The notes: a model not told the origin generated them from the sequence alone. Positions 3,212-42,325 are shown, counted from the first letter of the stretch. The stretch is 64,000 nucleotides of DNA from Patescibacteria group bacterium (GCA_041671325.1 JBAZBR010000003.1:132506-196505); one strand, 5' to 3'. Program-made: numbers and translations.

Positions 3212-3286
3212 GCCCCCGTAGCTCAATGGATAGAGCTATCCCGTCCTAAGGGAGAGATGGAGGTTCGATTCCTTTCGGGGGCACCA
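3212..3286 (+). tRNA. tRNA-Arg (anticodon CCT), 75 nt including encoded CCA
   Basis: Cloverleaf folded by hand: acceptor GCCCCCG/CGGGGGC, D-arm GCTC-AATGGATA-GAGC, anticodon arm ATCCC-GTCCTAA-GGGAG, T-arm GGAGG-TTCGATT-CCTTT, then A and CCA. Confidence 0.85.
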
Positions 3287-4720
3287 CCCAGAATATGAGG
3301 CGCTTTGCGCCGCTATACCCCAGCCCAAATGGGCTTCAAATCGAAGCGTTTTGCCTTTCAAAAGAAAGTTCGAGCCGATATTTTTCATTGAATTCTTAAT
3401 TTCCAAGAGGTCGCGCGAGATTGCGACTTTTTTGGCTTGTTTACTTAATAAAATGAACTCTCGCATTGGTTCGAGCCAAACTAAACCCTCGCCCCGTAAT
3501 TGAGCGAATTTATCCTCAATTCTCACTTTTTCATTTACAAGCGTATCTTTCTTAGATAAATACTCCGAAGTGGTAATTGAACGCTCCAATTTTGCATCTA
3601 AAAGATTATCCAGCTTCTTTTCCACAACAACCAATGTATCTTTTTTCTTTTGGGCGAGGGCTTGAGTGGTCTGCTCGTTTCTCTCTTTTTCTTGGTCTAG
3701 CTTGACCAACATTTTATCCGCCCAGTCATCACGGATGGAATGAGTGGCTAAGGTCGCCCTCATTTGCTCCACTAGCGCTTCTTCACGCAAGAATTTCGTT
3801 TCACATCTGCCTTTCTTTTTGGTACAGCGGTAATACGTGTGTCCCTTCTGGCTTTCTGCCGTAATGTAGCAACCGCAAGAAGCGCATTTAATCAAGCCAA
3901 GAAAGGCAAAGTTATGTTTCTTTATTTCCCTCGCGCGACCTCGTTTACGCATCATCGCCTGGGCTTTATCAAACAATTCCCTTGAGATGAACGTATCATG
4001 GCTTCCCTGGTATGTCTCCCCGCAATAAGTAAACACGCCGCAGTAAAAAGTGTTTTTAAGCATGTTTTGTATCATGCTGGCAGAGTTTGGGTGGTTGTAG
4101 TGGCTTTTGAGCTTCACACGATTACACCAGTTGGCTAGAGCAGTTAATGTCCAGTCGCCGGTTACATACATAGTAAATAGCTTTTTGACTATTTTCGCTT
4201 CTCGTTTTTCAATGAGGATATTTCTACTTTTGGCGTCGTTGAAATAGCCAAGTGGCGCCATAGACGGCCACACACCGCGTCGTAGCTTCTGTCGTAGCCC
4301 ACGTTTCACGTTTTCCGATAGATTGTCTATGTAATACTTACTTTGTCCAAAAGCGATATTCAGCATGAATTTCCCTTGCGGCGTGTTCTCAAACCAAAAC
4401 GTGGGGAATTTCAGATTTTGGATTTTATCCCGATCGGTCAGGTAAATGACCTGTCCGCCGTCTACGGGATTTCTGGCCAGCCGATCAGGATGCCAGGCGA
4501 TGATGCCATTGGCTTCGCCCTTTTCTATTCTCTTCAGCATTTCATTGAAGATTTTCCGTCCGGGTTCTTTGGCAGTTTTTGCCTCGCAGAGCGAGGCGAC
4601 GATTTCAAGTTTTTCTTTGGCGGCAAATTCTTTTAATTCATCTATTTGAGATTCAATGCTTAACACCTGACGATCTTCCTCGTCAGTAGATTTCCTGGCA
4701 TAGAGAAAATATTTGTTCAT
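3236..4720 (-). CDS. Large serine recombinase (resolvase/invertase N-terminal catalytic domain + recombinase domain + zinc ribbon)
   Basis: N-terminus YARKSTDEEDRQVLSIESQ (catalytic Ser motif), ...DRLARN..., central recombinase domain, Cys cluster CASCGCY...YYRC, C-terminal coiled coil. Its 3' end runs into the 76-bp inverted repeat and the tRNA-Arg 3' end. Confidence 0.85.
   Translation of the reverse strand: MNKYFLYARKSTDEEDRQVLSIESQIDELKEFAAKEKLEIVASLCEAKTAKEPGRKIFNEMLKRIEKGEANGIIAWHPDRLARNPVDGGQVIYLTDRDKIQNLKFPTFWFENTPQGKFMLNIAFGQSKYYIDNLSENVKRGLRQKLRRGVWPSMAPLGYFNDAKSRNILIEKREAKIVKKLFTMYVTGDWTLTALANWCNRVKLKSHYNHPNSASMIQNMLKNTFYCGVFTYCGETYQGSHDTFISRELFDKAQAMMRKRGRAREIKKHNFAFLGLIKCASCGCYITAESQKGHTYYRCTKKKGRCETKFLREEALVEQMRATLATHSIRDDWADKMLVKLDQEKERNEQTTQALAQKKKDTLVVVEKKLDNLLDAKLERSITTSEYLSKKDTLVNEKVRIEDKFAQLRGEGLVWLEPMREFILLSKQAKKVAISRDLLEIKNSMKNIGSNFLLKGKTLRFEAHLGWGIAAQSASYSGWCPRKESNLHLSLRTG
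3281..3356. repeat. IR1-L: left copy of a perfect 76-bp inverted repeat; it starts inside the last 6 nt of tRNA-Arg
   Basis: 3281-3356 is the exact reverse complement of 4787-4860, checked base by base. Confidence 0.9.
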
Positions 4721-4786
4721 ATATTTTTAAGATTAAGAATTAAGAGGGGGAAGTGCGCTTCTGGCCCCTCCGCTTCGCGGAGAAAG

Positions 4787-4860
4787 GCAAAACGCTTCGA
4801 TTTGAAGCCCATTTGGGCTGGGGTATAGCGGCGCAAAGCGCCTCATATTCTGGGTGGTGC
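4787..4860. repeat. IR1-R: right copy of the 76-bp perfect inverted repeat flanking the recombinase gene
   Basis: Exact reverse complement of 3281-3356. Confidence 0.9.
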
Positions 4861-4944
4861 GGTCTTTTTGAGAAAATACGAACCGAGTTTGCGGGCGGCG
4901 GCTCGCGCGCGGAGGAGACCCAGCCGCCGCCCGCTGCCGCGCCG
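4853..4944. repeat. IR2-L: left copy of a second perfect inverted repeat (~92 bp, GC-rich); it overlaps IR1-R over the GCACCAC core
   Basis: 4853-4944 is the reverse complement of 6438-6529. Confidence 0.85.
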
Positions 4945-5086
4945 TGTTAAAAAACTACCAAAGAACCCTAGAAAAATATCGACTCTCACTTTCTTTTAGG
5001 CCAGAAGCGCACTTCCCCCTATTGCTTTAAGTCCAATTTGGACTATTCCATACTGGACTTTATCATGAATTTGTGAAACAATCAAT

Positions 5087-5308
5087 ATGAATAGCGAAAT
5101 CTACTCAAAAGAACATAAAAAGCTCATAGAACGCATAATACAGGCCCGAAAAGAGGCAGATTTAAGCCAGATGGAAGCAGCCAAGCGACTTGGCCGATCC
5201 CAGTCTTATATCTCAAAAATCGAGGTTGGACAGCGGAAGATTGACGTGATTGAGTTGAAAAAAATTGCCAAAGTATATAATGTTGCCATCAGTAGTTTAA
5301 TTAATTAA
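5087..5308 (+). CDS. XRE-family helix-turn-helix transcriptional regulator (73 aa)
   Basis: LSQMEAAKRLGRSQSYISKIEVGQRKIDVIELKKIAKVYNV is a classic HTH_XRE pattern. Confidence 0.75.
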   Translation: MNSEIYSKEHKKLIERIIQARKEADLSQMEAAKRLGRSQSYISKIEVGQRKIDVIELKKIAKVYNVAISSLIN

Positions 5309-5326
5309 TTTTTTTAAAATATATCT

Positions 5327-5950
5327 ATGATTTTTCTGTACATTTTATTAGCCATAATAGCATATATACTTTGGCGCATTTATCGCCAAAAGGAAGTGGA
5401 AAAAGAACGAATTACAAGTGAAAAGTTTAACGCTGAATGGGAACAAATTAGGAAAGAAGAATTTAAAAACTACCCTCATTTGATTGGAAAAGTTGATTAC
5501 GCCTGGCTTGAGCTTTTTGGGAAAGTTTTTGTCGAAAAAGATATGTCACACATAAACGCTGCTTTTTTAATATATGCAAAAGAAGCAAACAATACAAAGT
5601 TAGATATTATTGAGGTGGATCATCTATTTGACTCATTATGGGATCTTTCAGAGGAGCTCCTTGAGCATTTGGAAAAATATCACGAAAGCACTAAATACGA
5701 ATATGAAATAGCAATTCTTGCATTTTGGCAGATTGCCGCGCAAGGAGCTGACTCTTTTGTTGGAAAAGATATTGAAACAATAACAAAGATGTTCCAATCT
5801 GCCCCATTTACCGACATAGAAAAAATTCCTTCATGGTTTCCTAAAAAAGATAATCATCCAGTTAAAGAACTTTCTTTTAGAGGTGAAAACGCTAATTTCC
5901 CAAGAAAATCTGAAGGCTCGAAACTAATTCACGAAAGAATAACAGTCTAA
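5327..5950 (+). CDS. hypothetical protein with N-terminal TM helix (207 aa); cargo of the tRNA-Arg element
   Basis: Intact ORF. Hydrophobic N-terminus MIFLYILLAIIAYILW. No recognisable motif. Confidence 0.5.
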   Translation: MIFLYILLAIIAYILWRIYRQKEVEKERITSEKFNAEWEQIRKEEFKNYPHLIGKVDYAWLELFGKVFVEKDMSHINAAFLIYAKEANNTKLDIIEVDHLFDSLWDLSEELLEHLEKYHESTKYEYEIAILAFWQIAAQGADSFVGKDIETITKMFQSAPFTDIEKIPSWFPKKDNHPVKELSFRGENANFPRKSEGSKLIHERITV

Positions 5951-5971
5951 GAATTTGAAGCTGACAAATGA

Positions 5972-6400
5972 TTGCCGAAGATGAGCATATATAATAAAAC
6001 AAGAAAAATACCATTCGTATATTACTTATGCTATTTATTATGGATTTTGTTTATATGGGTTCTATTGTTGTCCCTCGAAATTAATATTACTTTAGAGTTC
6101 CTGAAAGAATATCTAAAAGTTGTTTTAAATACATTTATTGCAACAATTGTACTCATATTTGCGATTCAAATACCGCGTTTAGAAAAATTCAAAGACGATA
6201 AAGAAAAACAAACTGAAATAAAGAAAGATTGGGGTAAATTTCTGCAAAGATTTGTATTATTAATAATTTTTATCTTAGTAACTTTTCTTTCTCTAGAATT
6301 TTTTATTTTTGGTTTCTTAAAAGATTTTGTTTTGGCAGTAACGATTGTTGGACTGTTTTATCTTTTTAAATCTATCTTTTCATATCTAAGGAATATTTAA
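5972..6400 (+). CDS. hypothetical small membrane protein (142 aa, about 3-4 TM helices)
   Basis: Highly hydrophobic segments: YLCYLLWILFIWVLLLS; LLIIFILVTFLSLEFFIFGFL. Confidence 0.45.
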   Translation: MPKMSIYNKTRKIPFVYYLCYLLWILFIWVLLLSLEINITLEFLKEYLKVVLNTFIATIVLIFAIQIPRLEKFKDDKEKQTEIKKDWGKFLQRFVLLIIFILVTFLSLEFFIFGFLKDFVLAVTIVGLFYLFKSIFSYLRNI

Positions 6401-6437
6401 TTAGAACTTGCCGCTAAAGAAAAACTCGAAATCGTCA

Positions 6438-6529
6438 AAACGGCGCGGCAGCGGGCGGCGGCTGGGTCTCCTCCGCGCGCGAGCCGCCGCCCGCAAACTC
6501 GGTTCGTATTTTCTCAAAAAGACCGCACC
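6438..6529. repeat. IR2-R: right copy of the ~92-bp inverted repeat; it ends with GCACCAC, a direct repeat of the tRNA-Arg 3' end
   Basis: Reverse complement of 4853-4944. The terminal GCACCAC (6523-6529) duplicates 3281-3287. Confidence 0.85.
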
Positions 6530-6608
6530 ACGCGTCATCGCTTGCTTCACCCTTCGCGTGCTTGAGGTCTCAAGCCCGCTGCGGGTTCCTCAAGCGTGCC
6601 ACTTTCCC
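6523..6608 (+). repeat. Trailer element copy T-A (part 1), GC-rich, beginning GCACCACGCGTCATC
   Basis: Aligns with T-B (7336-) and T-C (7894-): CCACCACG..TCATC/AATC...CTTCACCC..., about 65-70% identity. Contains alternative-pairing stems GCTTGAGG / TCTCAAGC / CCTCAAGC. Confidence 0.5.
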
Positions 6609-6643
6609 CAATTTATAAAAAATAAATCGGGGACCCCATAAAA
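6606..6643. repeat. Mini-palindrome H-A: CCCCAATTTAT-aaaaa-ATAAATCGGGG followed by the conserved tail ACCCCATAAAA
   Basis: Four similar hairpins (6606, 7497, 7975, 8040) share CCCC(A)AAT..palindrome..ATTGGGG + (A/G)ACCCCAT(A/G)A. Confidence 0.6.
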
Positions 6644-6844
6644 TCACTTATAACTCTCTGCAAGGTTATCGCTTTTCCTCCCGAATGCTTGCTCCTTCCC
6701 ATCAACTGAGTTCGGAGTCGTGCGCACCTCATTCGTGAAGCTATGTTCCAGGCGCAGCCCGCTCTCCCTAAATTTTAAATTTGAAAATTTAGAGGCACCC
6801 ATTCAATTGATTATTTCGCAGACAGCAGCTTATCATATTTAAAA

Positions 6845-6960
6845 ATGTTACACGTGCCTGCCCGCCATCTGTAAATACTCCTATGTTTTATATACAATTC
6901 ATGAATTGTTCCACGTGGAACAATTTCAGTAATATAGACTAGGCATGGCAGGCGGGGAAC
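6845..6960. repeat. Module U1: ~115-bp imperfect palindrome centred on TTCCACGTGGAA, upstream of tRNA-Ala(CGC)
   Basis: AATGTTACACGTGCCTGCCCGCC ... TTGTTCCACGTGGAACAATTTCA ... GGCATGGCAGGCGGGGAAC. The second copy, U2 (7545-7660), has the same architecture and spacing. Confidence 0.7.
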
Positions 6961-7176: not shown

Positions 7177-7250
7177 GGGGATATCGTATAGCGGTAATAC
7201 ACGGCATTCGCATTGCCGAGACCCGGGTTCGATTCCCGGTATCTCCACCA
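7177..7250 (+). tRNA. tRNA-Ala (anticodon CGC), 74 nt including encoded CCA
   Basis: Acceptor GGGGATA/TATCTCC with the G3:U70 Ala identity pair; D-arm GTAT-AGCGGTA-ATAC; anticodon arm CGGCA-TTCGCAT-TGCCG; T-arm CCGGG-TTCGATT-CCCGG; then A and CCA. Confidence 0.8.
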
Positions 7251-7335
7251 AGCCCGTACGGCATATAGGTTACCGAGGAGGTGGTCCCCCGCCTGCCTCA
7301 CAAGTGAGTCAAGTGGGCAGGGATTCCGCCTAGGC

Positions 7336-7496
7336 CCACCACGCGTCAATCCTTGCGTCGGGTTACGTGTGCTCAAAGTCTTGAGCCCACTCCACCCTTT
7401 ACAAGATTGCCGCTTTTCCTCGCAAACGCGTGCTCGTCCTGCATAGCAGGACTGCGCTCCACGCTTGCTTGGTAGATCCTGCAAGCATCCCGCTTA
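7336..7496 (+). repeat. Trailer element copy T-B (parts 1 and 2 contiguous), beginning CCACCACGCGTCAATC
   Basis: Homologous to 6523-6608 plus 6650-6760. Shared block CGCTTTTCCTC(G/C)C(A/G)AA(C/T)GC(G/T)TGCTC. Confidence 0.5.
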
Positions 7497-7529
7497 CCCA
7501 ATTTCATTGGTATTGATGATGAAATGGGG
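7497..7529. repeat. Mini-palindrome H-B: CCCAATTTCAT...ATGAAATGGGG
   Basis: Same hairpin class as H-A, H-C and H-D. Confidence 0.5.
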
Positions 7530-7544
7530 ACTCCTAATAAGTAA

Positions 7545-7660
7545 AATGTTCCACGTGCTTGCCCGCCACCTACAATTTATTCAATATTTACTTTATAATT
7601 ATTAAAATGTTCCACGTGGAACAATTTCAAACTTATCCCAAGGCATGGCAGGCGGGGAAC
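7545..7660. repeat. Module U2: second copy of the ~115-bp palindromic module (TTCCACGTGGAA core), upstream of tRNA-Ala(GGC)
   Basis: AATGTTCCACGTGCTTGCCCGCC...AATGTTCCACGTGGAACAATTTCA...GGCATGGCAGGCGGGGAAC. Confidence 0.7.
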
Positions 7661-7823: not shown

Positions 7824-7899
7824 GGGCCTCTAGCTCATTTGGTAGAGCGCTTCCATGGCATGGAAGAGGTGAGGAGTTCGAGCCTCCTGAGGTCCACCA
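7824..7899 (+). tRNA. tRNA-Ala (anticodon GGC), 76 nt including encoded CCA
   Basis: Acceptor GGGCCTC/GAGGTCC with G3:U70; D-arm GCTC-ATTTGGTA-GAGC; anticodon arm CTTCC-ATGGCAT-GGAAG; T-arm AGGAG-TTCGAGC-CTCCT; then A and CCA. Confidence 0.85.
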
Positions 7900-7974
7900 C
7901 GAATCATCACGAACTTCACCCTACATTTGCTCGCTTAGGCGAGCCTATTTCGGGTTACGTTCGTGTGCTTCTTA
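7894..7974 (+). repeat. Trailer element copy T-C, starting within the tRNA-Ala(GGC) 3' end (CCACCACGAATCATC...)
   Basis: Aligns with T-A and T-B part 1. Ends CTTACCCC immediately before hairpin H-C. Confidence 0.45.
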
Positions 7975-8014
7975 CCCCAAATATTAGTTCCTAATATTTG
8001 GGGACCCCATGAAG
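7975..8014. repeat. Mini-palindrome H-C: CCCCAAATATTAG-ttc-CTAATATTTGGGG + ACCCCATGAAG
   Basis: Perfect 13-bp arms. Confidence 0.6.
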
Positions 8015-8039
8015 TGGGGTTTCACAAACGTGCCGCTTA

Positions 8040-8078
8040 CCCCAATTTTTTGATAAAAAATTGGGAACCCCATAATAC
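8040..8078. repeat. Mini-palindrome H-D: CCCCAATTTTTT-gat-AAAAAATTGGG + AACCCCATAATAC
   Basis: Preceded by CAAACGTGCCGCTTACCCC, which repeats the end of T-A (CAAGCGTGCCACTTTCCCC). Confidence 0.6.
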
Positions 8079-33598: not shown

Positions 33599-36500
33599 AT
33601 GCCAAAAGCTAAAAGAAGAAAATCGAAGAATAAAATAACAAGGACTAAAAAGCTTTTTAATGTTTTTGAATTTTTTAAGCATAATTTAAAGCAATCAGCC
33701 GGCATGGCCGTGATTTTTTTGGTTTTTGGAGTTTGGATGCTTGTGCAGGCGCAAAATCCTGAAGCGCCAATCTACCAGGCCAAGCCAGCGACTTGCTCTG
33801 GTTGGCAGGCACCTGACCAAGCCAAGGCAATTAACCTGATGGCTTCGGCTGGCCGAGAGGATTTTTCTACGGAAAATTCAGCATATATTTCCAATGTAAA
33901 TTTTATTGCTAATCAGAATAATAACGATCTCAAAGTCAATTTAACTGATTCGCAAACCATACTCAGCTGTTCTGGCTTTACCTTGCCAGATAACTTGCCA
34001 AAAAATGGCCGTTTAGTTTCTAATAAATTGATAGTTTCTTTGGCTGCTAATGGCTTTACGGAAAGTGAAGATGTTTTAGTTTTACAATACAGCCTGGATG
34101 GTAAGACTTGGCAAAAAATTGATTCGTTTGCGATCACGGATTCCATCAGCAATGCCACGCATGGTGATTTTTGGCAGGTAGAAATTCCAAATTTTAGCCT
34201 CGACCAAGTTTCCAAGCTACAATTCCGGGCGGATTTCCAAACCTTGCCTTCCGACGAAGTTTCCACGGTCTTGTTTGACGGCGTGAATTTGGAATTGGTC
34301 GTGGATAAGCCGTTATCTGGTAAACCTGCTGATTTATCAAAGGACATCATAAAAATAAACAAGACAACTTTTAATAAGTTTGAAGATCCAGTCATTACTT
34401 TAGAAACTGAAAAAAAATCTAGACTTGATTTTTTGGGCTTTGATGGCACCCAGCGAAAAATTGAAGAAGTGAGCATGATTGATCCAAGTGGCCAGGAAAT
34501 TATCCCAGATTTTGAAACTGACAAGATTGTGCAAGGTTCAAGCACGTATGACGCCTATAAAATAAAAACCCAGAACTATAAACGGCCGGGGAAATACCGA
34601 GTGGAATTTACCGTAATTCAGGATAATAACCAAGATGTAATAACCCGGGAGTTTTATTGGGGGGTTTTAGTAGTGAACTCGGATAAGTCTGTTTATCATC
34701 CGGGTGAAACCGCTTCTATCGGCATGGCGGTTTTGGATAGTTTCGGCAGTACGCTCTGTGATGCCAAGGTCGATTTAAGCGTTGCCGCGCCAAACGGTGA
34801 AGTCAAGACATTTTCAACCGACGATAATAGCGTAGAGAGGTCTGCAAAATGCGGAGCCCATACAGTCACCAATTTGCCGGATTACAGCGCCAAATATGAT
34901 ACTTCTGACGAAGGCGAATATACCCTAACCGTAACTTCAACAACAAAAGAAGGCGTGAATACCATTTCGGACAAGTTTTTCGTCAAACCGATTATTCCTT
35001 TTGACGTGATTCGCGATACGCCGACCCGAATTTATCCGGGCGCTGAATACGATACGAATTTAATTGTCACTCCCCAGCAAGATTATACCGGGACTTTTGA
35101 AGATTTTGTGCCGGATAATTTTAAAATCCTGACGGTCAGTAATTCTGGGAAAACCGAGATATTAAATAACGGTAAAATCAAAATTTTATGGAATGTCGAT
35201 TGGCAGGCGGGCAAGCAATATGTTTTAAGCTACCATTTTGATCCGCCAAAGATAAACCCGGCCATTTTTACGGTCGGGCAATTTAAAAGCGGATCCATTA
35301 ACCAGCAAGGTGAAGTTTTTGAAGAATATCGGCCCTGGCAGATTGCTTTTGACGCCACCTGTACTTCCAAAGCCACAGCTGCCTGGAACGTAGGTACGAC
35401 CTGGAATACCTGTGGGGCCAACGGGCCAGTGGCTGGTGATACCGTTATTTTAGCTTCAGGTTTTGTCGTATCCTGCCCAGCGACGATTACTTGTTCAGCC
35501 GCGACAATTACCGTGAACCAGCCATCCACGAGCAATGGTTTAATGCTGTCGGCCTCGACCAGCCGAGTGACCCTGACCGGCGCTTTGACTATTAATGGTT
35601 CGACTGGATCAAACAGCAAAAACGCTTCGATTGTGGTTGGTGCGGGTACGCTCGACGCGGCCAGTGTTTCCATGGTCACCACGGCTGGAACAAACCGGAA
35701 CGCGATATTAAGCGTCAGCACCGGGACCATTAACATTACTGGCAATATTTCTTTTTCTGGCGTTGCAGCGTTTAACAAATTGACTTTTTCCAGCACCGGT
35801 ACGCTCAACATTGGGGGGACAATTGGCACCGGCGGGACTTTAACGCCTAGCACTGGCACGGTGAATTTTAACGGCGGCGCGGCACAAACCCTGGAAAGCA
35901 CGTACACCTATAACAACGTTACCATTACCAATACTTCCGGCAATGTGGCCACCAACGGCACCACCACCATTAACGGCAATTTAACCATGACTTCCGGCTC
36001 GCTGACTGGTACTGACAATATTACCGTAATAAAGAATGTAGTTTGTGGCGTGACCTGCGGGACAATCAGCCGTACCGGCGGCACCTTTACCCAGCAAGTC
36101 GGCGCCGCGCAAAATTTTGGCACCAATGTGGCCGTGGCCACGGATTGGACTTTCAATGATTTGGTGTTTGACCAGGGCGCGGCCGGATCATTCACCATCA
36201 CCACGTCAGCTACCGGTACGGGCGCGAATATTGTCAACGGAAATTTAAGCACCACCCTAACAACGGGAACCACCTTAACAATAGACAACAATACTAATGA
36301 TCGGATTTTTGACGTGGCTGGCAATTTTACGGTTGGCGCGAATACGGTTTGGAGCTCTTCCAGTGGTACCGCTTTAACTTCTTTTACCATCGGCGGGAGT
36401 TTTGCCAATAATGGGACCTTTACCCACAATAGCGGCACCGTTACTTTTGATTCAGCTGGAACCGGCAATACCGTCAATACCGCAACTTTTTATAATATTA

Positions 36501-39500
36501 TTTTTTATGGCGCTGGCGCTTGGTCCCCGGCGACTGGTTCGACCGTAACTATCGACAACATCATGTATATGTCCAACGGCACCCTAAACAATGATGCCGG
36601 AACAGGGAATATCATAGTCAAAGAGCGAGTGGCATGTATAATCTCTTGCGGAACAATCAATTTAACTTCGAGTTCATCGACTTTTACCCAATCAGTTGCT
36701 TCAAGCGTGAGTTTTGGCACTAACCTGGCAAGTGCCATCAATTGGACTTTTTATAATCTGACCTTTGACAATTCTACGGCCTCTTCTTATACCATAACTA
36801 CATACCCTACGGGCACTGGCCAAATAATCGTGGGCGGCTTGCTGAGTTTGACTACTACGGGTGGCGGAGCATTGATAGTGGATAATTCAACCAATGACAG
36901 GATTTTTGATTTAAATGGCGGGCTGACAATCAGTGCCAGTACCACCTTTCAAGCTTCGGATTTGGATAATTTTACCATTGCGGGCAACCTGGCTAATAGC
37001 GGGACTTTTACGGCTGGTTCTTCAGGCACAGTGACTATAGACGGTACGGGCAATACTTTTACTGGCACCTGGACCGGTGGTTCAGCTTTTTATAATTTGA
37101 AATTCAGCAATGCCAGCGGAGCTTGGTCACCTGGAGTGGCGTTGACCGTGGGCGGTGGGCTGACAATTTCTTCTGGTACTTTAACCATGGCTGCGGTGGC
37201 TTTTACCATAACTGGCGCTACTTCAGTCACGGGCACTATAACCATATCCTCGGCCACTGGCACCAAAACTTTTACGGGTAACATTACGATAAACAATGGC
37301 GGTACTTGGAACAATACTTCAGCAAATGTCGCCTTGAGTTTGGCTGGCAGTTTGCAGAATGACGGGGCTTTTAACGCTGGCACGGGTGTTTACACTTTTA
37401 CTGGCGCCGCGCAAACTTTTAGCGGTGCAAATGCCATAACCATACCCAGTCTGACGGTTTCCGGCACATACACCAATAACGGCACTTTGACCGTAACCAC
37501 GGCTTTAGCTGGGGCTGGCACCTTGACCCAAGGCGCTACTGGCTGGCTGGATGTGGATGTGGCAAATGCCAGTTTTACTTTAAGCAACTATGTTTTTTCT
37601 ACCACCGGCAATACGGTAGATTATGGCTATGCCGACGTGCAAACCATACAGGTCACTACTTATTCCAATTTAAGCTTGTCCGGCAGCGGCGTTAAGACTT
37701 TTACTAATGTATCTGTCTATAATGGCAATTTGACCTTGAGCGGCACGGCTTCGGCCACCATGGGTGGATCAACGGCCTGGACTATTGGCGGCAATATTAC
37801 GGTCAATACTGGTGCGGCGCTGACCCAAAACAATGCGGCCAATTTGACGATTAATGGCGGCAGTTTAACAGCTAACAGCACGGGTACTTTTAGTACGAAT
37901 GAGTTTTGTCTAAACTGCGCCATGATCATTGGGGCGACTGGCAGTATCACTGGAGACGGCGCTATTACCCTTAATGCTTTGGCGACGTTAGGCACAGGTA
38001 CAACAACTATTAATGCTACTAATCTGACGGTTAGGGGCAATGTTACGGTGGGTACTGGCACAACTTTGACGATTGGCGTGTCTTTAAGCCTGGTGGGAAA
38101 TTTAGTTAATACCACAACCGGCATAATAAATTATTCCGGGTTACCCACCCTGACCATGTCCACTGGTACATTAGGCGGGGGTGCCGGTACCATCACTCTT
38201 TATAATCTGACTAAAACCGGCGCCGGCATTCTGAACCTTGCTTCGGCAGTAACTTGCGATAATGATGTCGCAGTTGATGCTGGTACTTTATCCGGCTCGG
38301 TTGATTTGACCGTCACTGGCGGAGATTTGGCTGGCGATGGCATCGTGACCATGACTGGCGGCACTGTCACCATAGTTAACGACGGCACTATCGGGACAAA
38401 TACTGCCGTTGATAAAGACTGGACGTTTTATAATCTTTTTTTGGATATCAGCGGCACTTGCACATTGAAAACCACCGAAAGCAACGCTGGGACTGGAGAC
38501 ATTACGGTCACTTCCGCCCTGACCATAGATTCTTGTTCTGGAGGCGAAGGCACTAATTACCATAGATTTTCTCCCAATACCCGCACCTGGATTTTTTCCG
38601 GTACGGGCACTCCTTTACCCGCCTCGTCAATATCCACAACTGGCTATGGCACGTCCATTGTCAGGTTTACCGGCACTAGTTCGGCCGTGACTGTCGGCGC
38701 TAACAGGTTTTATACTTTGGAATTACAGCCGACTTCGTCAAATAGCTACATATTAAGCAATGGAGTTAATTATTATATTTATGGCAACTTGACTATTTCC
38801 AGTAATGCTAGCCTGACGGCCGGTACATCATCAGTTAATATGTATGGCGCAGGTACTACCCTGGATGGCGGCGGTGCCACGCTTTCCACCTTGAATATTG
38901 ATCCTGATTCACCAGACGGCACGGTCGCAATTGCAAATACGGACGTTACAGTCTCTAACACCCTTATCGTCTGGGATGCGGGCGACACATTATCGATTCC
39001 TTCTGGACGAACAGTGAGCGCTACCGGCGCGTTTGCAATTGTTGGCGCTGTCTCTGGCGCCGGCACCCTGCGCTTTACTAACACTTCAGCAGGTCCTGGC
39101 GCAACCGGTACAATCAGCACCATTGTCCGCTATGACGCCAGTGCCGGGAATATCGCTACGGGCACTTTTGACGCCCGGACCTATGGCGGGGATGTGGAAG
39201 TTTATTCGAATGTCGCGGATACGACCCGCTCCATTGCCATGGCTTCAAGTACGCAAACTATTACTGGCAATTTGAAAATTATCACTGGCGCTGCCCAAAA
39301 TTTAGTTCCCACCTTGGATGTTACTGCCAATCCGACCGTAAACATTACCGGCAATGTTTCCTTCACCAAAGGCGGCGCTGGTACGCCCGCAATTACCTCT
39401 GGCACTGGCGCTTGGACCGTAACCGGCAATGTGGATTTTACCGATGGGACTTATACGGCCACTTCGGGAAACACCTTGACCATGAATGGCACTTCAAATT

Positions 39501-42325
39501 CCATCAAAGGCGCCAGTCAAACTTTGTATAATTTTACGGTTGATCCTGCAAGCCCTGGCACGATCAGTCTTGCTACTTCAGATTTGGCCGTAAGTAATAC
39601 GCTTAATATCGCTTCCAGCGATGCCCTGACCCTGGATGCCAGCCGAACCCTGGCCCATACTGGCGCCACCTTGACTTTAACCGGGACAATCAACGGCCCT
39701 GGCCGCCTGACTTACCAATCCGCTTCGGCTTTTCCAACAGGCGGAACTTTAGCCAGCAGCTTAATCCTAAGGTTTAATGCCACGGCCAATGACCAGACTA
39801 TGAGCAACCGGACGGATTACGGCCTTATTGAAATTGATAATAGCGGCGTTACTGACGGTAGGACAGTAACCATGTCAGCTTCAACGCATACTTTATCCGG
39901 CGGCTTGACCGTGCTTTCTTCAGGGGGCGGCTCGGTTGCTTTAGTCGGTGCCACTAATGATCCCACGGTAAATGTTGGCGGTGATCTGACTTTTACTGCT
40001 GGCGGCGGCGTCAAAACCATTTCTACCGGTACGGGCAATTGGAAAGTCAGCGGCAGTGTGAATTTGACCAATGGGACTTTTACGGCCACGGCCAATAACA
40101 CTTTGGAAATGGATGGCGGATCTAAAACCATTACTTCCGCAGCCCAAGGACTCCAGAAATTCAAAGTTTCTGGCGGCAGCGTTGCCAGCGCCGATGCCAT
40201 GTTGGTCAACAAGACTTTTGATGTGACTGCTGGCGGCTTTACCCAGGCTGCAGAAGCTAACCTGACTGTTTATGGTAATTTTTCTTTGACTTTAGGCACC
40301 ACTTTTACCGCCGCAACAGGCGCGGGCAAATTAATTTTAGACGGCAATCCTTCGCCCAATACTTTCACTGACAGCACTTCGCCCCAGCAGGATATGGGCA
40401 ATGTGGAAATTGGCTTGTCGCCTGGCACCACGGATTTAGCTTCTGATTTGACGGCCAAAAGCGTAACTGTCAACGCGGGGGATGTTTTGAATACTAATGG
40501 TTATGATTTAAATATTGGTATTGGCGGGATTACCATCAAAGGCACTATGGACGTCAATGATGACGTGGAAACCGATGGCACGGTAATGGAAACTGATAAT
40601 ATTTTTGACCTGCAAGCCGGCGCAACTTTAGCTAATCCTGCTGGCACAAACGTCGGCTCCACTTTATCTTTTACCATGCCAGTAACTTTAGTAGATATCG
40701 CCAATAATTTGATAACCGCGGGTACAGGCAGTCTTTATGATTTATTAGTTAACGATGGTGGCGGGGCGCGTACTTTGACGGTTAATGTCCAGGACCCATT
40801 AGTGGTACTGAATAATGTTACGATTACCGGCGGAGTTTTGGATACCGTTGATACAGAGAATAACCAAATTAACGTCGGCGGTAATTGGACAAATAGCGAT
40901 TTATTTACTGCCCGTTCTGGCACCGTAGTTTTTGATGATACTAATGTTGACGCTCAAGACCAAACCATTAATCCAGGCGCGTCGTCTTTTTACAAAGTTA
41001 TTTTTGACGGTTCAGGCGGAGTCTGGTCGCCTTTGACTAATACCATGACAGTGACGAACGATTTAATCATGACTAATGGAACGTTCAATACAAGCAATGG
41101 CACGGCAAATGTCACCGTGAATGGTACGGTGCAGTGTGGCGCCACTTGCGGTACGATTACTATGAATACTGCGGGGACTAACACCTTCACCCAATCGGTT
41201 TCGGCTGACAAGAGTTTTGGCACTAATGTGGCAGTGGCCACCAATTGGACTTTTTACAACCTGACTTTTACGGGTACGTCAGGCGTACGGACTATTACAA
41301 CAAACAGCACGGGTACTGGCCAGATAATTGTTGCTAATGATTTGTCTCTGACCAATACTGGAACCTCCTTGGCCTTGGAAAACAATACCAATGACCGGAT
41401 TTTGGATGTGAATGGTTCGGTTTCTATTGGTGCTGGCACCACCCTTTCGGCTTCCAGTTCTGCATCATTCACCGTGGCAAAATCCTGGACAAACAGCGGT
41501 GCTTTAACTGCAAATGGCGGTACGGTTACTTTAGACTCAGCCAATGCGGCCACCATAATCGGTGATACAACCTTTAATAACTTATTAACTTCAGGTATTG
41601 GCGCAGCCAAGACCATCACTTTTACGGAAAATTCTACCCAGATAATTTCTGATACTTGGACAGTAACTGGCGCGGGCGGTCAAAAAGTCACTTTGGCGTC
41701 TTCAAACCCGGGTACCCAATGGATAGTAAACCCAACCGCGGCCGCGCTTAGTTATGTCCAAGTTTCTGATGCCCACAATGACGGAGCGGAAATCTGTGCA
41801 ACCTATTCCACGGCCACGGGCGACAACAACACTAATTTGCTTGTTTCAGCTGGCGCCTCTTGTGTTACCGACCCGACCTTGACTGTAACCTTAAGCGGAA
41901 ATAGCGCAGCCCTTGGTTTATTAGATACTGAACACGTGAACCAAGCCGGAATTTCCAGCGAAGTAACGACCAATGCGGTCGATGGCTATATTTCCACGGT
42001 GAAATATGACCACACCTTAACTTCGGGTACAGACACAATACCTGACACAATTGGCGGAAACATTCCCATTGGTTCGGCAGAATTTGGCGCATCTTCATCG
42101 CAAGCTGGAAATGCCATTGCCCAATGGAGCCCAGCAGCCTGTTCAACAACCACCAGCACGACCAATGCAACCGCGCTATCAACCAGTTTTCAAACATTCG
42201 CTTCAAATGCAGGTCCGGCAACTTCTGAATCCACAACCCTTTGCTTTGCGGCCAGTATTTCCGGCGTAACTCCAGCAGGTTCATATTCCAGCAGTATGAC
42301 CATAATAACCACCGGAAGATTTTGA
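33599..42325 (+). CDS. Giant cell-surface protein (2908 aa): N-terminal signal/anchor, then long Thr/Gly/Ser/Asn-rich beta-helix-like region with an internally repeated ~200-aa module
   Basis: N-terminal MPKAKRRKSKNK + TM segment AVIFLVFGVWMLV. Repeated module ...FGTN(V/L)A(V/S)A(T/I)(D/N)WTF(N/Y)(D/N)L(V/T)F...NDRI(F/L)D(V/L)(A/N)G... appears at least 3 times. Antisense ORFs inside are artefacts. Confidence 0.85.
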   Translation: MPKAKRRKSKNKITRTKKLFNVFEFFKHNLKQSAGMAVIFLVFGVWMLVQAQNPEAPIYQAKPATCSGWQAPDQAKAINLMASAGREDFSTENSAYISNVNFIANQNNNDLKVNLTDSQTILSCSGFTLPDNLPKNGRLVSNKLIVSLAANGFTESEDVLVLQYSLDGKTWQKIDSFAITDSISNATHGDFWQVEIPNFSLDQVSKLQFRADFQTLPSDEVSTVLFDGVNLELVVDKPLSGKPADLSKDIIKINKTTFNKFEDPVITLETEKKSRLDFLGFDGTQRKIEEVSMIDPSGQEIIPDFETDKIVQGSSTYDAYKIKTQNYKRPGKYRVEFTVIQDNNQDVITREFYWGVLVVNSDKSVYHPGETASIGMAVLDSFGSTLCDAKVDLSVAAPNGEVKTFSTDDNSVERSAKCGAHTVTNLPDYSAKYDTSDEGEYTLTVTSTTKEGVNTISDKFFVKPIIPFDVIRDTPTRIYPGAEYDTNLIVTPQQDYTGTFEDFVPDNFKILTVSNSGKTEILNNGKIKILWNVDWQAGKQYVLSYHFDPPKINPAIFTVGQFKSGSINQQGEVFEEYRPWQIAFDATCTSKATAAWNVGTTWNTCGANGPVAGDTVILASGFVVSCPATITCSAATITVNQPSTSNGLMLSASTSRVTLTGALTINGSTGSNSKNASIVVGAGTLDAASVSMVTTAGTNRNAILSVSTGTINITGNISFSGVAAFNKLTFSSTGTLNIGGTIGTGGTLTPSTGTVNFNGGAAQTLESTYTYNNVTITNTSGNVATNGTTTINGNLTMTSGSLTGTDNITVIKNVVCGVTCGTISRTGGTFTQQVGAAQNFGTNVAVATDWTFNDLVFDQGAAGSFTITTSATGTGANIVNGNLSTTLTTGTTLTIDNNTNDRIFDVAGNFTVGANTVWSSSSGTALTSFTIGGSFANNGTFTHNSGTVTFDSAGTGNTVNTATFYNIIFYGAGAWSPATGSTVTIDNIMYMSNGTLNNDAGTGNIIVKERVACIISCGTINLTSSSSTFTQSVASSVSFGTNLASAINWTFYNLTFDNSTASSYTITTYPTGTGQIIVGGLLSLTTTGGGALIVDNSTNDRIFDLNGGLTISASTTFQASDLDNFTIAGNLANSGTFTAGSSGTVTIDGTGNTFTGTWTGGSAFYNLKFSNASGAWSPGVALTVGGGLTISSGTLTMAAVAFTITGATSVTGTITISSATGTKTFTGNITINNGGTWNNTSANVALSLAGSLQNDGAFNAGTGVYTFTGAAQTFSGANAITIPSLTVSGTYTNNGTLTVTTALAGAGTLTQGATGWLDVDVANASFTLSNYVFSTTGNTVDYGYADVQTIQVTTYSNLSLSGSGVKTFTNVSVYNGNLTLSGTASATMGGSTAWTIGGNITVNTGAALTQNNAANLTINGGSLTANSTGTFSTNEFCLNCAMIIGATGSITGDGAITLNALATLGTGTTTINATNLTVRGNVTVGTGTTLTIGVSLSLVGNLVNTTTGIINYSGLPTLTMSTGTLGGGAGTITLYNLTKTGAGILNLASAVTCDNDVAVDAGTLSGSVDLTVTGGDLAGDGIVTMTGGTVTIVNDGTIGTNTAVDKDWTFYNLFLDISGTCTLKTTESNAGTGDITVTSALTIDSCSGGEGTNYHRFSPNTRTWIFSGTGTPLPASSISTTGYGTSIVRFTGTSSAVTVGANRFYTLELQPTSSNSYILSNGVNYYIYGNLTISSNASLTAGTSSVNMYGAGTTLDGGGATLSTLNIDPDSPDGTVAIANTDVTVSNTLIVWDAGDTLSIPSGRTVSATGAFAIVGAVSGAGTLRFTNTSAGPGATGTISTIVRYDASAGNIATGTFDARTYGGDVEVYSNVADTTRSIAMASSTQTITGNLKIITGAAQNLVPTLDVTANPTVNITGNVSFTKGGAGTPAITSGTGAWTVTGNVDFTDGTYTATSGNTLTMNGTSNSIKGASQTLYNFTVDPASPGTISLATSDLAVSNTLNIASSDALTLDASRTLAHTGATLTLTGTINGPGRLTYQSASAFPTGGTLASSLILRFNATANDQTMSNRTDYGLIEIDNSGVTDGRTVTMSASTHTLSGGLTVLSSGGGSVALVGATNDPTVNVGGDLTFTAGGGVKTISTGTGNWKVSGSVNLTNGTFTATANNTLEMDGGSKTITSAAQGLQKFKVSGGSVASADAMLVNKTFDVTAGGFTQAAEANLTVYGNFSLTLGTTFTAATGAGKLILDGNPSPNTFTDSTSPQQDMGNVEIGLSPGTTDLASDLTAKSVTVNAGDVLNTNGYDLNIGIGGITIKGTMDVNDDVETDGTVMETDNIFDLQAGATLANPAGTNVGSTLSFTMPVTLVDIANNLITAGTGSLYDLLVNDGGGARTLTVNVQDPLVVLNNVTITGGVLDTVDTENNQINVGGNWTNSDLFTARSGTVVFDDTNVDAQDQTINPGASSFYKVIFDGSGGVWSPLTNTMTVTNDLIMTNGTFNTSNGTANVTVNGTVQCGATCGTITMNTAGTNTFTQSVSADKSFGTNVAVATNWTFYNLTFTGTSGVRTITTNSTGTGQIIVANDLSLTNTGTSLALENNTNDRILDVNGSVSIGAGTTLSASSSASFTVAKSWTNSGALTANGGTVTLDSANAATIIGDTTFNNLLTSGIGAAKTITFTENSTQIISDTWTVTGAGGQKVTLASSNPGTQWIVNPTAAALSYVQVSDAHNDGAEICATYSTATGDNNTNLLVSAGASCVTDPTLTVTLSGNSAALGLLDTEHVNQAGISSEVTTNAVDGYISTVKYDHTLTSGTDTIPDTIGGNIPIGSAEFGASSSQAGNAIAQWSPAACSTTTSTTNATALSTSFQTFASNAGPATSESTTLCFAASISGVTPAGSYSSSMTIITTGRF

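Follow-up and report, generated by a model that had tools for sequence, protein, structure and literature searches.

Phage-type serine integrases (phiC31, Bxb1, A118/LI) combine resolvase, recombinase, and zinc-ribbon domains, are encoded adjacent to their attachment site (attP), and use a short asymmetric core, with the zinc-ribbon-domain motif of the bacterial site (attB) shifted 5 bp toward the centre relative to that of attP (Rutherford et al. 2013, PMC3783163). The Hin, Gin, Cin, and Pin invertases are small serine recombinases (~190 aa) with a C-terminal helix-turn-helix (HTH), which act on 26-bp sites with a Fis-bound enhancer and do not integrate; hin itself lies within the H segment. 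Here we describe an element of a Patescibacteria group bacterium, occupying positions 3288 to 6531 of a 64,000-nucleotide stretch of DNA (GCA_041671325.1 JBAZBR010000003.1:132506-196505; hereafter the window), in which the gene for a 494-aa large serine recombinase (LSR) and a cargo module are each enclosed by long perfect inverted repeats at the 3' end of a tRNA-Arg(CCT) gene. It shares the above-mentioned features of the phage-type integrases but differs from them in that its target consists of the last tRNA nucleotides, each site displays one recognisable motif half-site, the predicted attP lies inside the coding end of the recombinase gene, and a second, inverted attP appears to lie within the element; identity of the recombinase to characterised enzymes is about 30% or less. 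With the invertases it shares a serine recombinase gene placed between inverted repeats, inversion being expected to alter transcription, whereas the size of its enzyme and its repeats of 79 and 92 nt (79-300 nt in the family), which have the makeup of att sites, set it apart from the invertase type.

The two pairs of repeats (Table 1) were delimited by a repeat search and a base-by-base check. The a pair (arms a and a', 79 nt) is 100% complementary, and the b pair (arms b and b', 92 nt) is a perfect inverted repeat that extends to 95 nt at 99%, with one mismatch (4854-4948/6437-6531). Arms a' and b overlap on GTGGTGC, the reverse complement of a GCACCAC core common to three junctions (sites 1 to 3). 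The original prediction, made from the same DNA, was right about the tRNA gene, which ARAGORN and Rfam both call, about the perfection of both pairs, and about this overlap; the 76 bp it gave for the a repeat fall short of the 79 nt found, and of its two outer cores the left one is exact and the right one (6523-6529) lies 2 nt off the actual 6525-6531. It also held that the a pair brackets the recombinase alone, which is true of the gene content (the gene and its 61-nt leader, and nothing else), although the open reading frame (ORF) itself reads through arm a into antisense tRNA. The b pair encloses an XRE-family gene and ORFs of 207 and 142 aa, with a GC fraction of 0.25-0.35 as against 0.43-0.53 in the recombinase part. 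Perfect inverted matches of 79 and 92 nt within 3.3 kb cannot have arisen by chance. The source contig (k141_1044463 of assembly ERZ27249449; 209,908 bp) was assembled by MEGAHIT at k=141, and since both repeats are shorter than this final k-mer, every junction is spanned by real k-mers.

Table 1. Coordinates of the features of the element and its flank, counted from the first nucleotide of the window
Feature	Positions	Strand	Basis or remark
tRNA-Arg(CCT)	3212-3286	+	ARAGORN; Rfam, 58 bits
LSR ORF, 494 aa	3236-4720	-	Pfam Resolvase, Recombinase, and Zn_ribbon_recom
Core of site 1 (putative attL), GCACCAC	3281-3287	+	tRNA nt 71-76 plus 1
Arm a, core plus 72 nt	3281-3359		Repeat search; small hairpins; codes for the C-terminal end of the recombinase
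X1, recombinase codons ~445-453 (KNIGSNF), directly inside arm a	3360-3386	-	Inverted copy at 4971-4997
X2 (KTAKEP), within the recombinase gene	4562-4580	-	Inverted-repeat pair
pal17 palindrome, GCCTCGC-TCT-GCGAGGC on the sense strand, within the recombinase gene	4581-4597	-	Palindrome survey, covariation test
X3 (EFAAKEKLEIV), within the recombinase gene	4598-4631	-	Inverted-repeat pair
X4, recombinase 5' leader/promoter region	4742-4766	-	Inverted copy at 4999-5023
Arm a', non-coding mirror copy of arm a	4782-4860		Repeat search; concerted evolution
Core of site 2, GTGGTGC, inside the putative inverted internal attP (a'-core-b)	4854-4860	-	Junction alignment
Arm b, core plus 85 nt; putative P-type half-site and 13-bp GC-rich hairpin	4854-4945		Repeat search, half-site consensus
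X2' (4950-4968), X1' (4971-4997), and X4' (4999-5023), cargo end by site 2	4950-5023	+	
XRE-family HTH regulator, 73 aa	5087-5308	+	Pfam HTH_3, 9e-15
Cargo ORFs of 207 aa (5327-5950) and 142 aa (5972-6400)	5327-6400	+	ORF calls
X3', copy of recombinase codons 31-41, distal cargo end abutting arm b'	6403-6436	+	
Arm b', ending in the core of site 3 (putative attR), GCACCAC, 6525-6531	6440-6531		Repeat search
Native tRNA trailer after site 3	6532-6720	+	Paralogous to 7886-8070 (after tRNA-Ala(GGC)) and 7330-7520

Profile searches bore out the prediction of an LSR: the protein has an N-terminal resolvase domain (PF00239, 9e-22) followed by the C-terminal domains PF07508 (1e-15) and PF13408 (1e-07), and Y7, R9, S11, D79, R80, and R83 are invariant in an alignment with 26 homologues. 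A low-complexity region at residues 320-410 presumably represents the inserted coiled coil. The best curated-model matches, XisF and CcrA/B, are all far under cut-off, the IS607 model gives 33.6 bits against a cut-off of 110, and the Protein Data Bank holds catalytic-domain-only relatives. As no stop codon precedes arm a, this arm constitutes the coding 3' end of the gene, specifying the conserved last ~26 residues (LKGKTLRFEAHLGWGIAAQSASYSGWC); the conserved protein ends at about 3281, and the final 14 codons are antisense tRNA. The tail after ...SGWC in the integrated form is thus PRKESNLHLSLRTG (3236-3280), and were the gene read into arm b (4861-4950), as in an excised or flipped form, it would be GLFEKIRTEFAGGGSRAEETQPPPAAAPC (GLFEKIRTEF...). 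With the crossover at the end of the ORF, the tail differs with the state of the element, and many homologues have tails of the DSNP type, derived from the antisense strand of the T-loop. A comparable state-dependent C terminus is known from the integration-dependent switching of mycobacteriophages, where attP lies inside a gene; those systems, in contrast, use tyrosine integrases and degradation tags. An ORF mirrored over a' (4753-4950), annotated as a gene in the source, was rejected, its start codon being missing in 37 of 73 relatives.

Alignment of the three junctions from 30 loci gave a uniform order of parts, namely, tRNA-core-a at site 1, b-core-a inverted at site 2, and b-core-flank at site 3. 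In all 30, the core comprises the last tRNA nucleotides, and all cores coincide only around the discriminator base (nt 72-74), where the crossover would fall. The T-arm of the tRNA-Arg (GGTTCGATTCC) and the acceptor 3' strand form a B-type half-site of the target, and arm b carries a P-type half-site (GGTTCGTAT, minus strand) whose distance from the core exceeds that of the tRNA motif by 5 nt. This offset is exact in a 32-locus consensus, in which the T-loop GTTCG is at position 24 in the tRNA flanks and the corresponding GTTCG at position 19 in the b flanks. As the shift matches the published attP/attB rule, b'-core-a can be equated with attP and the tRNA end plus trailer with attB, which makes site 1 an attL, site 3 an attR, and site 2 a second complete, inverted attP. 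The repeats are accordingly best read as two mirror-image copies of an attP of roughly 164 bp. Every locus examined has a second complete attP in inverted orientation, in place of the single attP per element of serine integrases, and a b-type half-site adjoins a' even in loci where no b partner was detected; in some loci, the recombinase is flanked by two different b-type half-sites (L050, L073). Recombinases that are ~90% identical (L107, L109, L034, L116, and others) occur at different tRNAs (Arg, Leu, and others) with GCACCA as their common 3' end. The choice of target would seem to depend on the T-arm and the last few nucleotides and not on tRNA identity.

On the far side of the element, the sequence after site 3 (...CCACGCGTCATCGC...) is paralogous to that following the tRNA-Ala(GGC) (...CCACGAATCATCAC...), which places 3288-6531 between the tRNA-Arg gene and a native-type trailer. 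Together with the structure of the sites, this supports the earlier suggestion of an insertion at the tRNA 3' end that leaves the tRNA intact.

We propose, as the probable though by no means secure interpretation, that this is an integrative LSR element in which duplication of the attP in inverted orientation gives rise to two invertible modules and two integration orientations, with one favoured state and with arms that are homogenised and partly insulating. We infer catalysis by the LSR, a circular form, the pairs of sites that recombine, and the insulating role. The family would target the extreme 3' end of tRNA genes: attP (b'-core-a) would recombine with attB (T-arm and acceptor end, then trailer) to yield attL (tRNA-GCACCAC-a) and attR (b'-GCACCAC-trailer), the tRNA staying intact. 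The excised circle would hold two inverted attPs of ~164 bp, the second being a'-GTGGTGC-b (centre 4854-4860), and these would divide it into a recombinase module, R (3360-4781), and a cargo module, C (4946-6439). R and C could then be inverted relative to each other and to the tRNA, and the circle could integrate through either attP. In the strongly favoured state, represented in the window, both promoters would lie inside the element and diverge from site 2. The long arms would be kept identical by gene conversion or some comparable process, arm hairpins may insulate the modules from outside transcription, and C would be driven by a copy of the recombinase promoter, with unrelated passenger genes in close relatives. 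The predicted junctions are TTCCTTTCGGGGGCACCAC joined to GCGTCATCGCTTGC for the empty site, GAAGCGTTTTGCCTTTC to TCCGCGAAGCGGAGGGGCCAGA and TATCGGCTCGAACTTTCTTTT to GAAAGGCAAAACGCTTC for flipped R, and CTGCCGCGCCGT to TTTGACGATTTCGAGTTTTT and TTCTTTGGTAGTTTTTTAAC to ACGGCGCGGCAG for flipped C.

Homologues of the recombinase at 50-83% identity are very numerous and come mostly from Patescibacteria, with others in bins labelled Ignavibacteriota, Marinimicrobia, Desulfobacterales, Nitrospira, Brocadia, and more. In the three closest loci fetched, a perfect 75-79-nt repeat surrounds the recombinase gene and abuts a tRNA-Arg or tRNA-Gln, and in one of them a second repeat surrounds a 4.6-kb cargo. 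A scripted survey of 166 related loci recovered recombinase-flanking repeats in 135; arms of at least 60 nt are present in 116 loci, being perfect in 69 and bearing one mismatch in 23. The 3'-end arm overlaps the tRNA 3' end by about 6 nt in 76 repeat-bearing loci, and in a further 21 the recombinase converges on a tRNA with the repeats undetectable; convergence on a tRNA 3' end characterises 97 of the 166. The targets represent 13 amino-acid types (most commonly Ser, Leu, Gln, Arg, and Asn). About 60 loci possess a second repeat pair abutting a', with the b and a' arms usually overlapping by 2-13 nt and the enclosed cargo ranging from 0.8 to 8.7 kb. Searches of 2.9 million viral contigs returned two distant relatives only, a further departure from the phage-type integrases that makes a phage origin unlikely, and a plasmid collection from cultured organisms contained nothing closer than 29% identity to the recombinase. 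When the C-terminal 81 residues were searched against 50%-identity cluster representatives, mostly fragments were recovered, as identity within the family remains above 50% and its members fall into few clusters. Several side observations concern this wider family. An Asn-tRNA subfamily (L048, L050-L052, L058, L066, L127, L129, and L132) has much longer arms (a, 83-159 nt; b, 155-307 nt). Some genomes contain several members with different tRNA genes and cores (L043 and L055 in the metagenome-assembled genome [MAG] CAZAOT01; L063 and L067 in one MAG), and one contig carries two element copies (L064). Accretion and decay are indicated in L048 by a degenerate a-like arm past site 3, in L018 (11459-11525) by a tRNA 3' fragment at site 1, with a complete tRNA-Leu 68 nt further on, and in L046 (5774-6464) by additional a-like inverted repeats on both sides of a 0.5-kb remnant.

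The arms differ by 3-13% between related elements, and within each element both arms are identical, the coding and non-coding copies carrying the same substitutions (e.g., L019 and L032, which share 89% identity in both arms while their own arms are 100% identical). This identity within elements in the face of divergence between them means that some homogenising process must operate. The modules also differ in orientation across the family. In the usual state, as in the window, the recombinase gene points toward the tRNA, and at site 2 the cargo and the recombinase gene are oriented away from each other. In L116, the order is tRNA-Leu, arm, co-directional recombinase, arm, b, and cargo directed toward site 2, i.e., both modules are flipped; its recombinase is 90% identical to those of standard-state elements, and its arrangement, to which that of L074 is similar, is what integration by way of the internal attP would be predicted to yield. 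With C alone flipped in L004 and R alone flipped in L006, where the repeat has decayed, all four orientation states are represented. Contigs with the exact P0009 and P0113 proteins have the same arrangement in all places, the other orientation not being found among them. As judged from these comparisons, relative inversion has evidently been repeated in evolution yet is rare or disfavoured. The two invertible segments of the original prediction thus find support in the relatives, whereas the shufflon-type sites that it had in mind do not, since the repeats appear to be mirror-image attP copies; a shufflon has the tyrosine recombinase Rci, multiple short sfx repeats, and C-terminal exons of a structural gene, and this locus a serine recombinase, two repeat pairs, and no alternative exons.

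The C module behaves as a slot. Elements with R modules of ~80-93% nucleotide identity have the b arms and short flanks in common but unrelated DNA in between, so that C appears to be cassette-like, with turnover of cargo between close relatives; minimal elements of 2.4-2.7 kb consist of the recombinase and one gene of very varied kind, only sometimes an XRE regulator. Family and defence-system scans of the cargo in the window gave generic HTH matches only and no family match for the 207-aa and 142-aa ORFs, which are putative membrane proteins judged solely by visible hydrophobic stretches. A perfect palindrome upstream of the XRE gene (AGTCCAATTTGGACT, 5031-5045), overlapping a promoter-like site (5039-5066), is likely the XRE operator, and X4' lies immediately upstream of that site. 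In most loci examined, C holds short copies of its own recombinase gene, the Asn-tRNA subfamily being the exception: codons ~29-41 (X3') lie beside the distal b arm, and codons 47-54 (X2'), then 446-455 (X1'), then the 5' leader (X4') beside the proximal one. The copies follow their cognate recombinase gene in sequence. In its topology, C resembles a recombinase unit that has been gutted, circularly permuted, and opened between codons 41 and 47, and the patches amount to concerted evolution of short non-contiguous stretches.

Between X3 and X2, the recombinase gene contains pal17, a 17-nt palindrome with a 7-bp stem and a 3-nt loop. The stem is fully paired (7/7) in 53 of the first 81 loci with usable sequence (the Asn-tRNA subfamily has 4/7 pairs), and it covaries while the protein shifts from ASLCEA to ASFQEA or DSLCES. 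In a covariation test, 82.8% of cells were paired, versus 68.1% in shuffles, and 128 double changes were counted, versus 43 in shuffles, a number reached in none of 500; slid controls were 31-48% paired. A DNA or RNA constraint therefore overrides protein sequence at pal17. GTTCG-like motifs flank it at 20 and 25 nt from its centre, the spacings of the tRNA and b, respectively, which in the one conserved sequence at hand suggests, as a hypothesis, an att-like operator or a second nested pair of sites. A second small hairpin in the coding arm a was seen by eye to covary in L013, L014, L016, L093, L110, and L004 (GCCCTC-GCA-GAGGGC, GCCCGC-GTA-GCGGGC, GCGCTC-ACA-GAGCGC), with accompanying changes in the protein (ALAEG, ARVAG, and so on).

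Several points weigh against the integrative element with duplicated attP as we propose it. The usual orientation is found in >95% of loci, so that inversion must be rare or the other states selected against, and the C-flipped case, L004, is weakened by arms longer than the k-mer or read, which make assembled orientation unreliable. The empty site that was expected in relatives (tRNA-Arg end plus trailer, TTCGATTCCTTTCGGGGGCACCACGCGTCATC) had no match in 185,579 species genomes, leaving the paralogous trailer in the window as the only empty-site-like evidence. Canonical serine integrases need a directionality factor for excision, and no conserved candidate for one was found in the minimal 2.4-2.7-kb relatives, another contrast with the phage-type systems. 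The 5-bp motif rule holds for one half-site per site only; no inverted GTTCG at the expected spacing, and hence no dyad symmetry, was detected in arm a or the trailers. At 79-300 nt, the arms greatly exceed the length that binding sites require, and the integrative-element model leaves the recombinase-derived patches and pal17 unexplained. Finally, canonical rules forbid recombination between attL and attP (PMC3783163). A bolder scheme can be drawn up, which we regard as rather doubtful: one-motif-per-site logic with a nested B/P pair would make the element a self-limiting four-state switch and cassette platform, a new mobile-element class and a main gene-exchange vehicle in Patescibacteria. 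Any site with the B-type motif half (tRNA) would recombine with any P-type (b) site, so that the same enzyme would carry out integration, excision (tRNA site with site 3), and R inversion (tRNA site with site 2) with no directionality factor, and inversion of the cargo module would fall to the second nested B/P pair. Of the patches, X3' contains CTCGAAATC and X2' contains GGTTC, and X3-pal17-X2 in the recombinase gene would be an attL-like operator within coding sequence.

The orientation bias, the excess length of the arms, and the prohibition on attL with attP are also what would be expected if the element were an LSR element whose repeats serve as symmetric insulators (terminators or read-through double-stranded RNA) and not as inversion substrates. 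We consider this unlikely; under it, the rare flipped relatives would have originated by RecA-type recombination between arms or integration via the other attP. A terminator-like hairpin does point inward in both a arms, and structure is stronger in the arms than in the body of the recombinase gene (mean z, -1.3 and -1.7 versus -0.3), but a terminator scan was not above chance (5 found versus 4.4 expected), states with a single flipped module exist (L004, L006), and insulation alone would not demand what is seen throughout, namely, arms whose outer ends coincide exactly with the att core and an internal site that is in every case a full attP with a P-type motif. The gutted-recombinase look of C with its X2', X1', X4', and X3' patches, the turnover of cargo independently of R, and the two different b-type half-sites around R in L050 and L073 could instead speak for two elements, an autonomous IS-like a-R-a' and a derived, non-autonomous b-C-b' mobilised in trans, which co-integrate at the tRNA. 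This is distinctly improbable: the cores flanking each unit are inverted rather than direct, so that neither unit is excisable alone by conservative recombination, a b half-site stands beside a' in every locus examined, and no solo C unit turned up, though no search was aimed at one.

Because the concerted evolution of the arms requires a mechanism and the complementarity of the two attP copies is perfect along about 164 nt, we also considered a single-stranded free form, in which the inverted attPs would anneal into one double-stranded attP stem and the arms would be homogenised in the process, as modelled on the folded attP of phage CTX. However, serine recombinases cut both strands of both partners, so that a stem-loop attP would presumably leave hairpin-capped chromosome ends, and no replication or transfer gene was found in the 2.4-5-kb elements; such a form is very improbable. 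An assembly artefact or a one-off, very recent palindromic duplication, both raised by the original prediction, is effectively refuted by the comparative data. It is true that 79 nt is one of MEGAHIT's k values and that several related contigs end at arms. Against this, the final k of 141 exceeds both arm lengths, and the same architecture recurs in most of the 166 diverged relatives, in the output of independent assemblers, in long-read contigs (L021, L045), and in a closed genome (L059), with arms that coevolve across diverged elements. Contig breaks at arms as evidence of heterogeneity were for the most part rejected, as they are expected wherever the repeat is at least as long as k; the break in L002 (k=141, arm ~79 nt) is not accounted for in this way. 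We therefore retain the integrative element with two inverted attPs as the favoured interpretation.

The flank of the element has some further features. Three paralogous ~170-nt trailers (6519-6720, 7330-7520, and 7886-8070; 67% mean column identity) all start with CCACCACG..TCA, and the one at 7338 follows a tRNA-like 3' end (...GGGATTCCGCCTAGGCCCACCA) that ARAGORN did not call. Upstream of both tRNA-Ala genes is a repeated ~115-nt module (6843-6960 and 7546-7660) containing AAATGTT(A/C)CACGTGC.TGCCCGCCA, the palindrome TTCCACGTGGAA, and GGCATGGCAGGCGGGGAAC, which may be a shared promoter or regulatory unit. A sub-threshold Rfam match to the permuted tmRNA (7223-7283; 23.9 bits versus a gathering score of 47) overlaps the end of the tRNA-Ala(CGC) and the GC-rich stretch after it. 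Elsewhere in the window, an ORF encodes a giant protein of 2,908 aa (33599-42325).

More distant systems offer partial parallels. The yeast 2-micron plasmid resembles the predicted circle in that two long repeats with a recombination site (599-bp inverted repeats) split it into invertible halves; it differs in being eukaryotic, in that FLP is a tyrosine recombinase, and in serving copy-number amplification without integration. Integrons and tycheposons likewise combine a recombinase platform with fast-exchanged, mostly single-gene cargo and a platform promoter, tycheposons also at tRNA sites. Integrons, however, have a tyrosine integrase, folded attC sites, and individually excisable cassettes, whereas here there is no tyrosine recombinase, the slot is bounded by recombinase-derived patches and long b arms, and the cores flanking each module are inverted, in which the element departs from integrons and tycheposons alike. 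Transposases of the IS607/Tn4451 type, with a short dinucleotide junction, low target specificity, and no long inverted repeats, are unlike this element with its strict tRNA 3'-end target and long inverted repeats. A full-text literature search did not turn up this architecture. Both the class of enzyme and integration linked to tRNAs are already known; apparently new are an inverted attP inside the element, sites with a single motif, repeats that are nested and homogenised, a cassette slot derived from the recombinase gene, and a palindrome in coding sequence.

These elements constitute a very common class of compact (2.4-11 kb) mobile elements in candidate-phyla-radiation bacteria and other uncultured lineages. 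Few gene-transfer vehicles are known in those lineages, and the cargo here is exchanged quickly at a defined slot. The family is also a source of natural recombinase/attP/attB triplets, in the hundreds, which are directed to different tRNA 3' ends, have an att geometry readable from sequence, and are useful for engineering orthogonal integrases. Its internal inverted attP, single-motif sites, and missing directionality-factor candidate challenge the standard view of how the direction of serine integrases is controlled.

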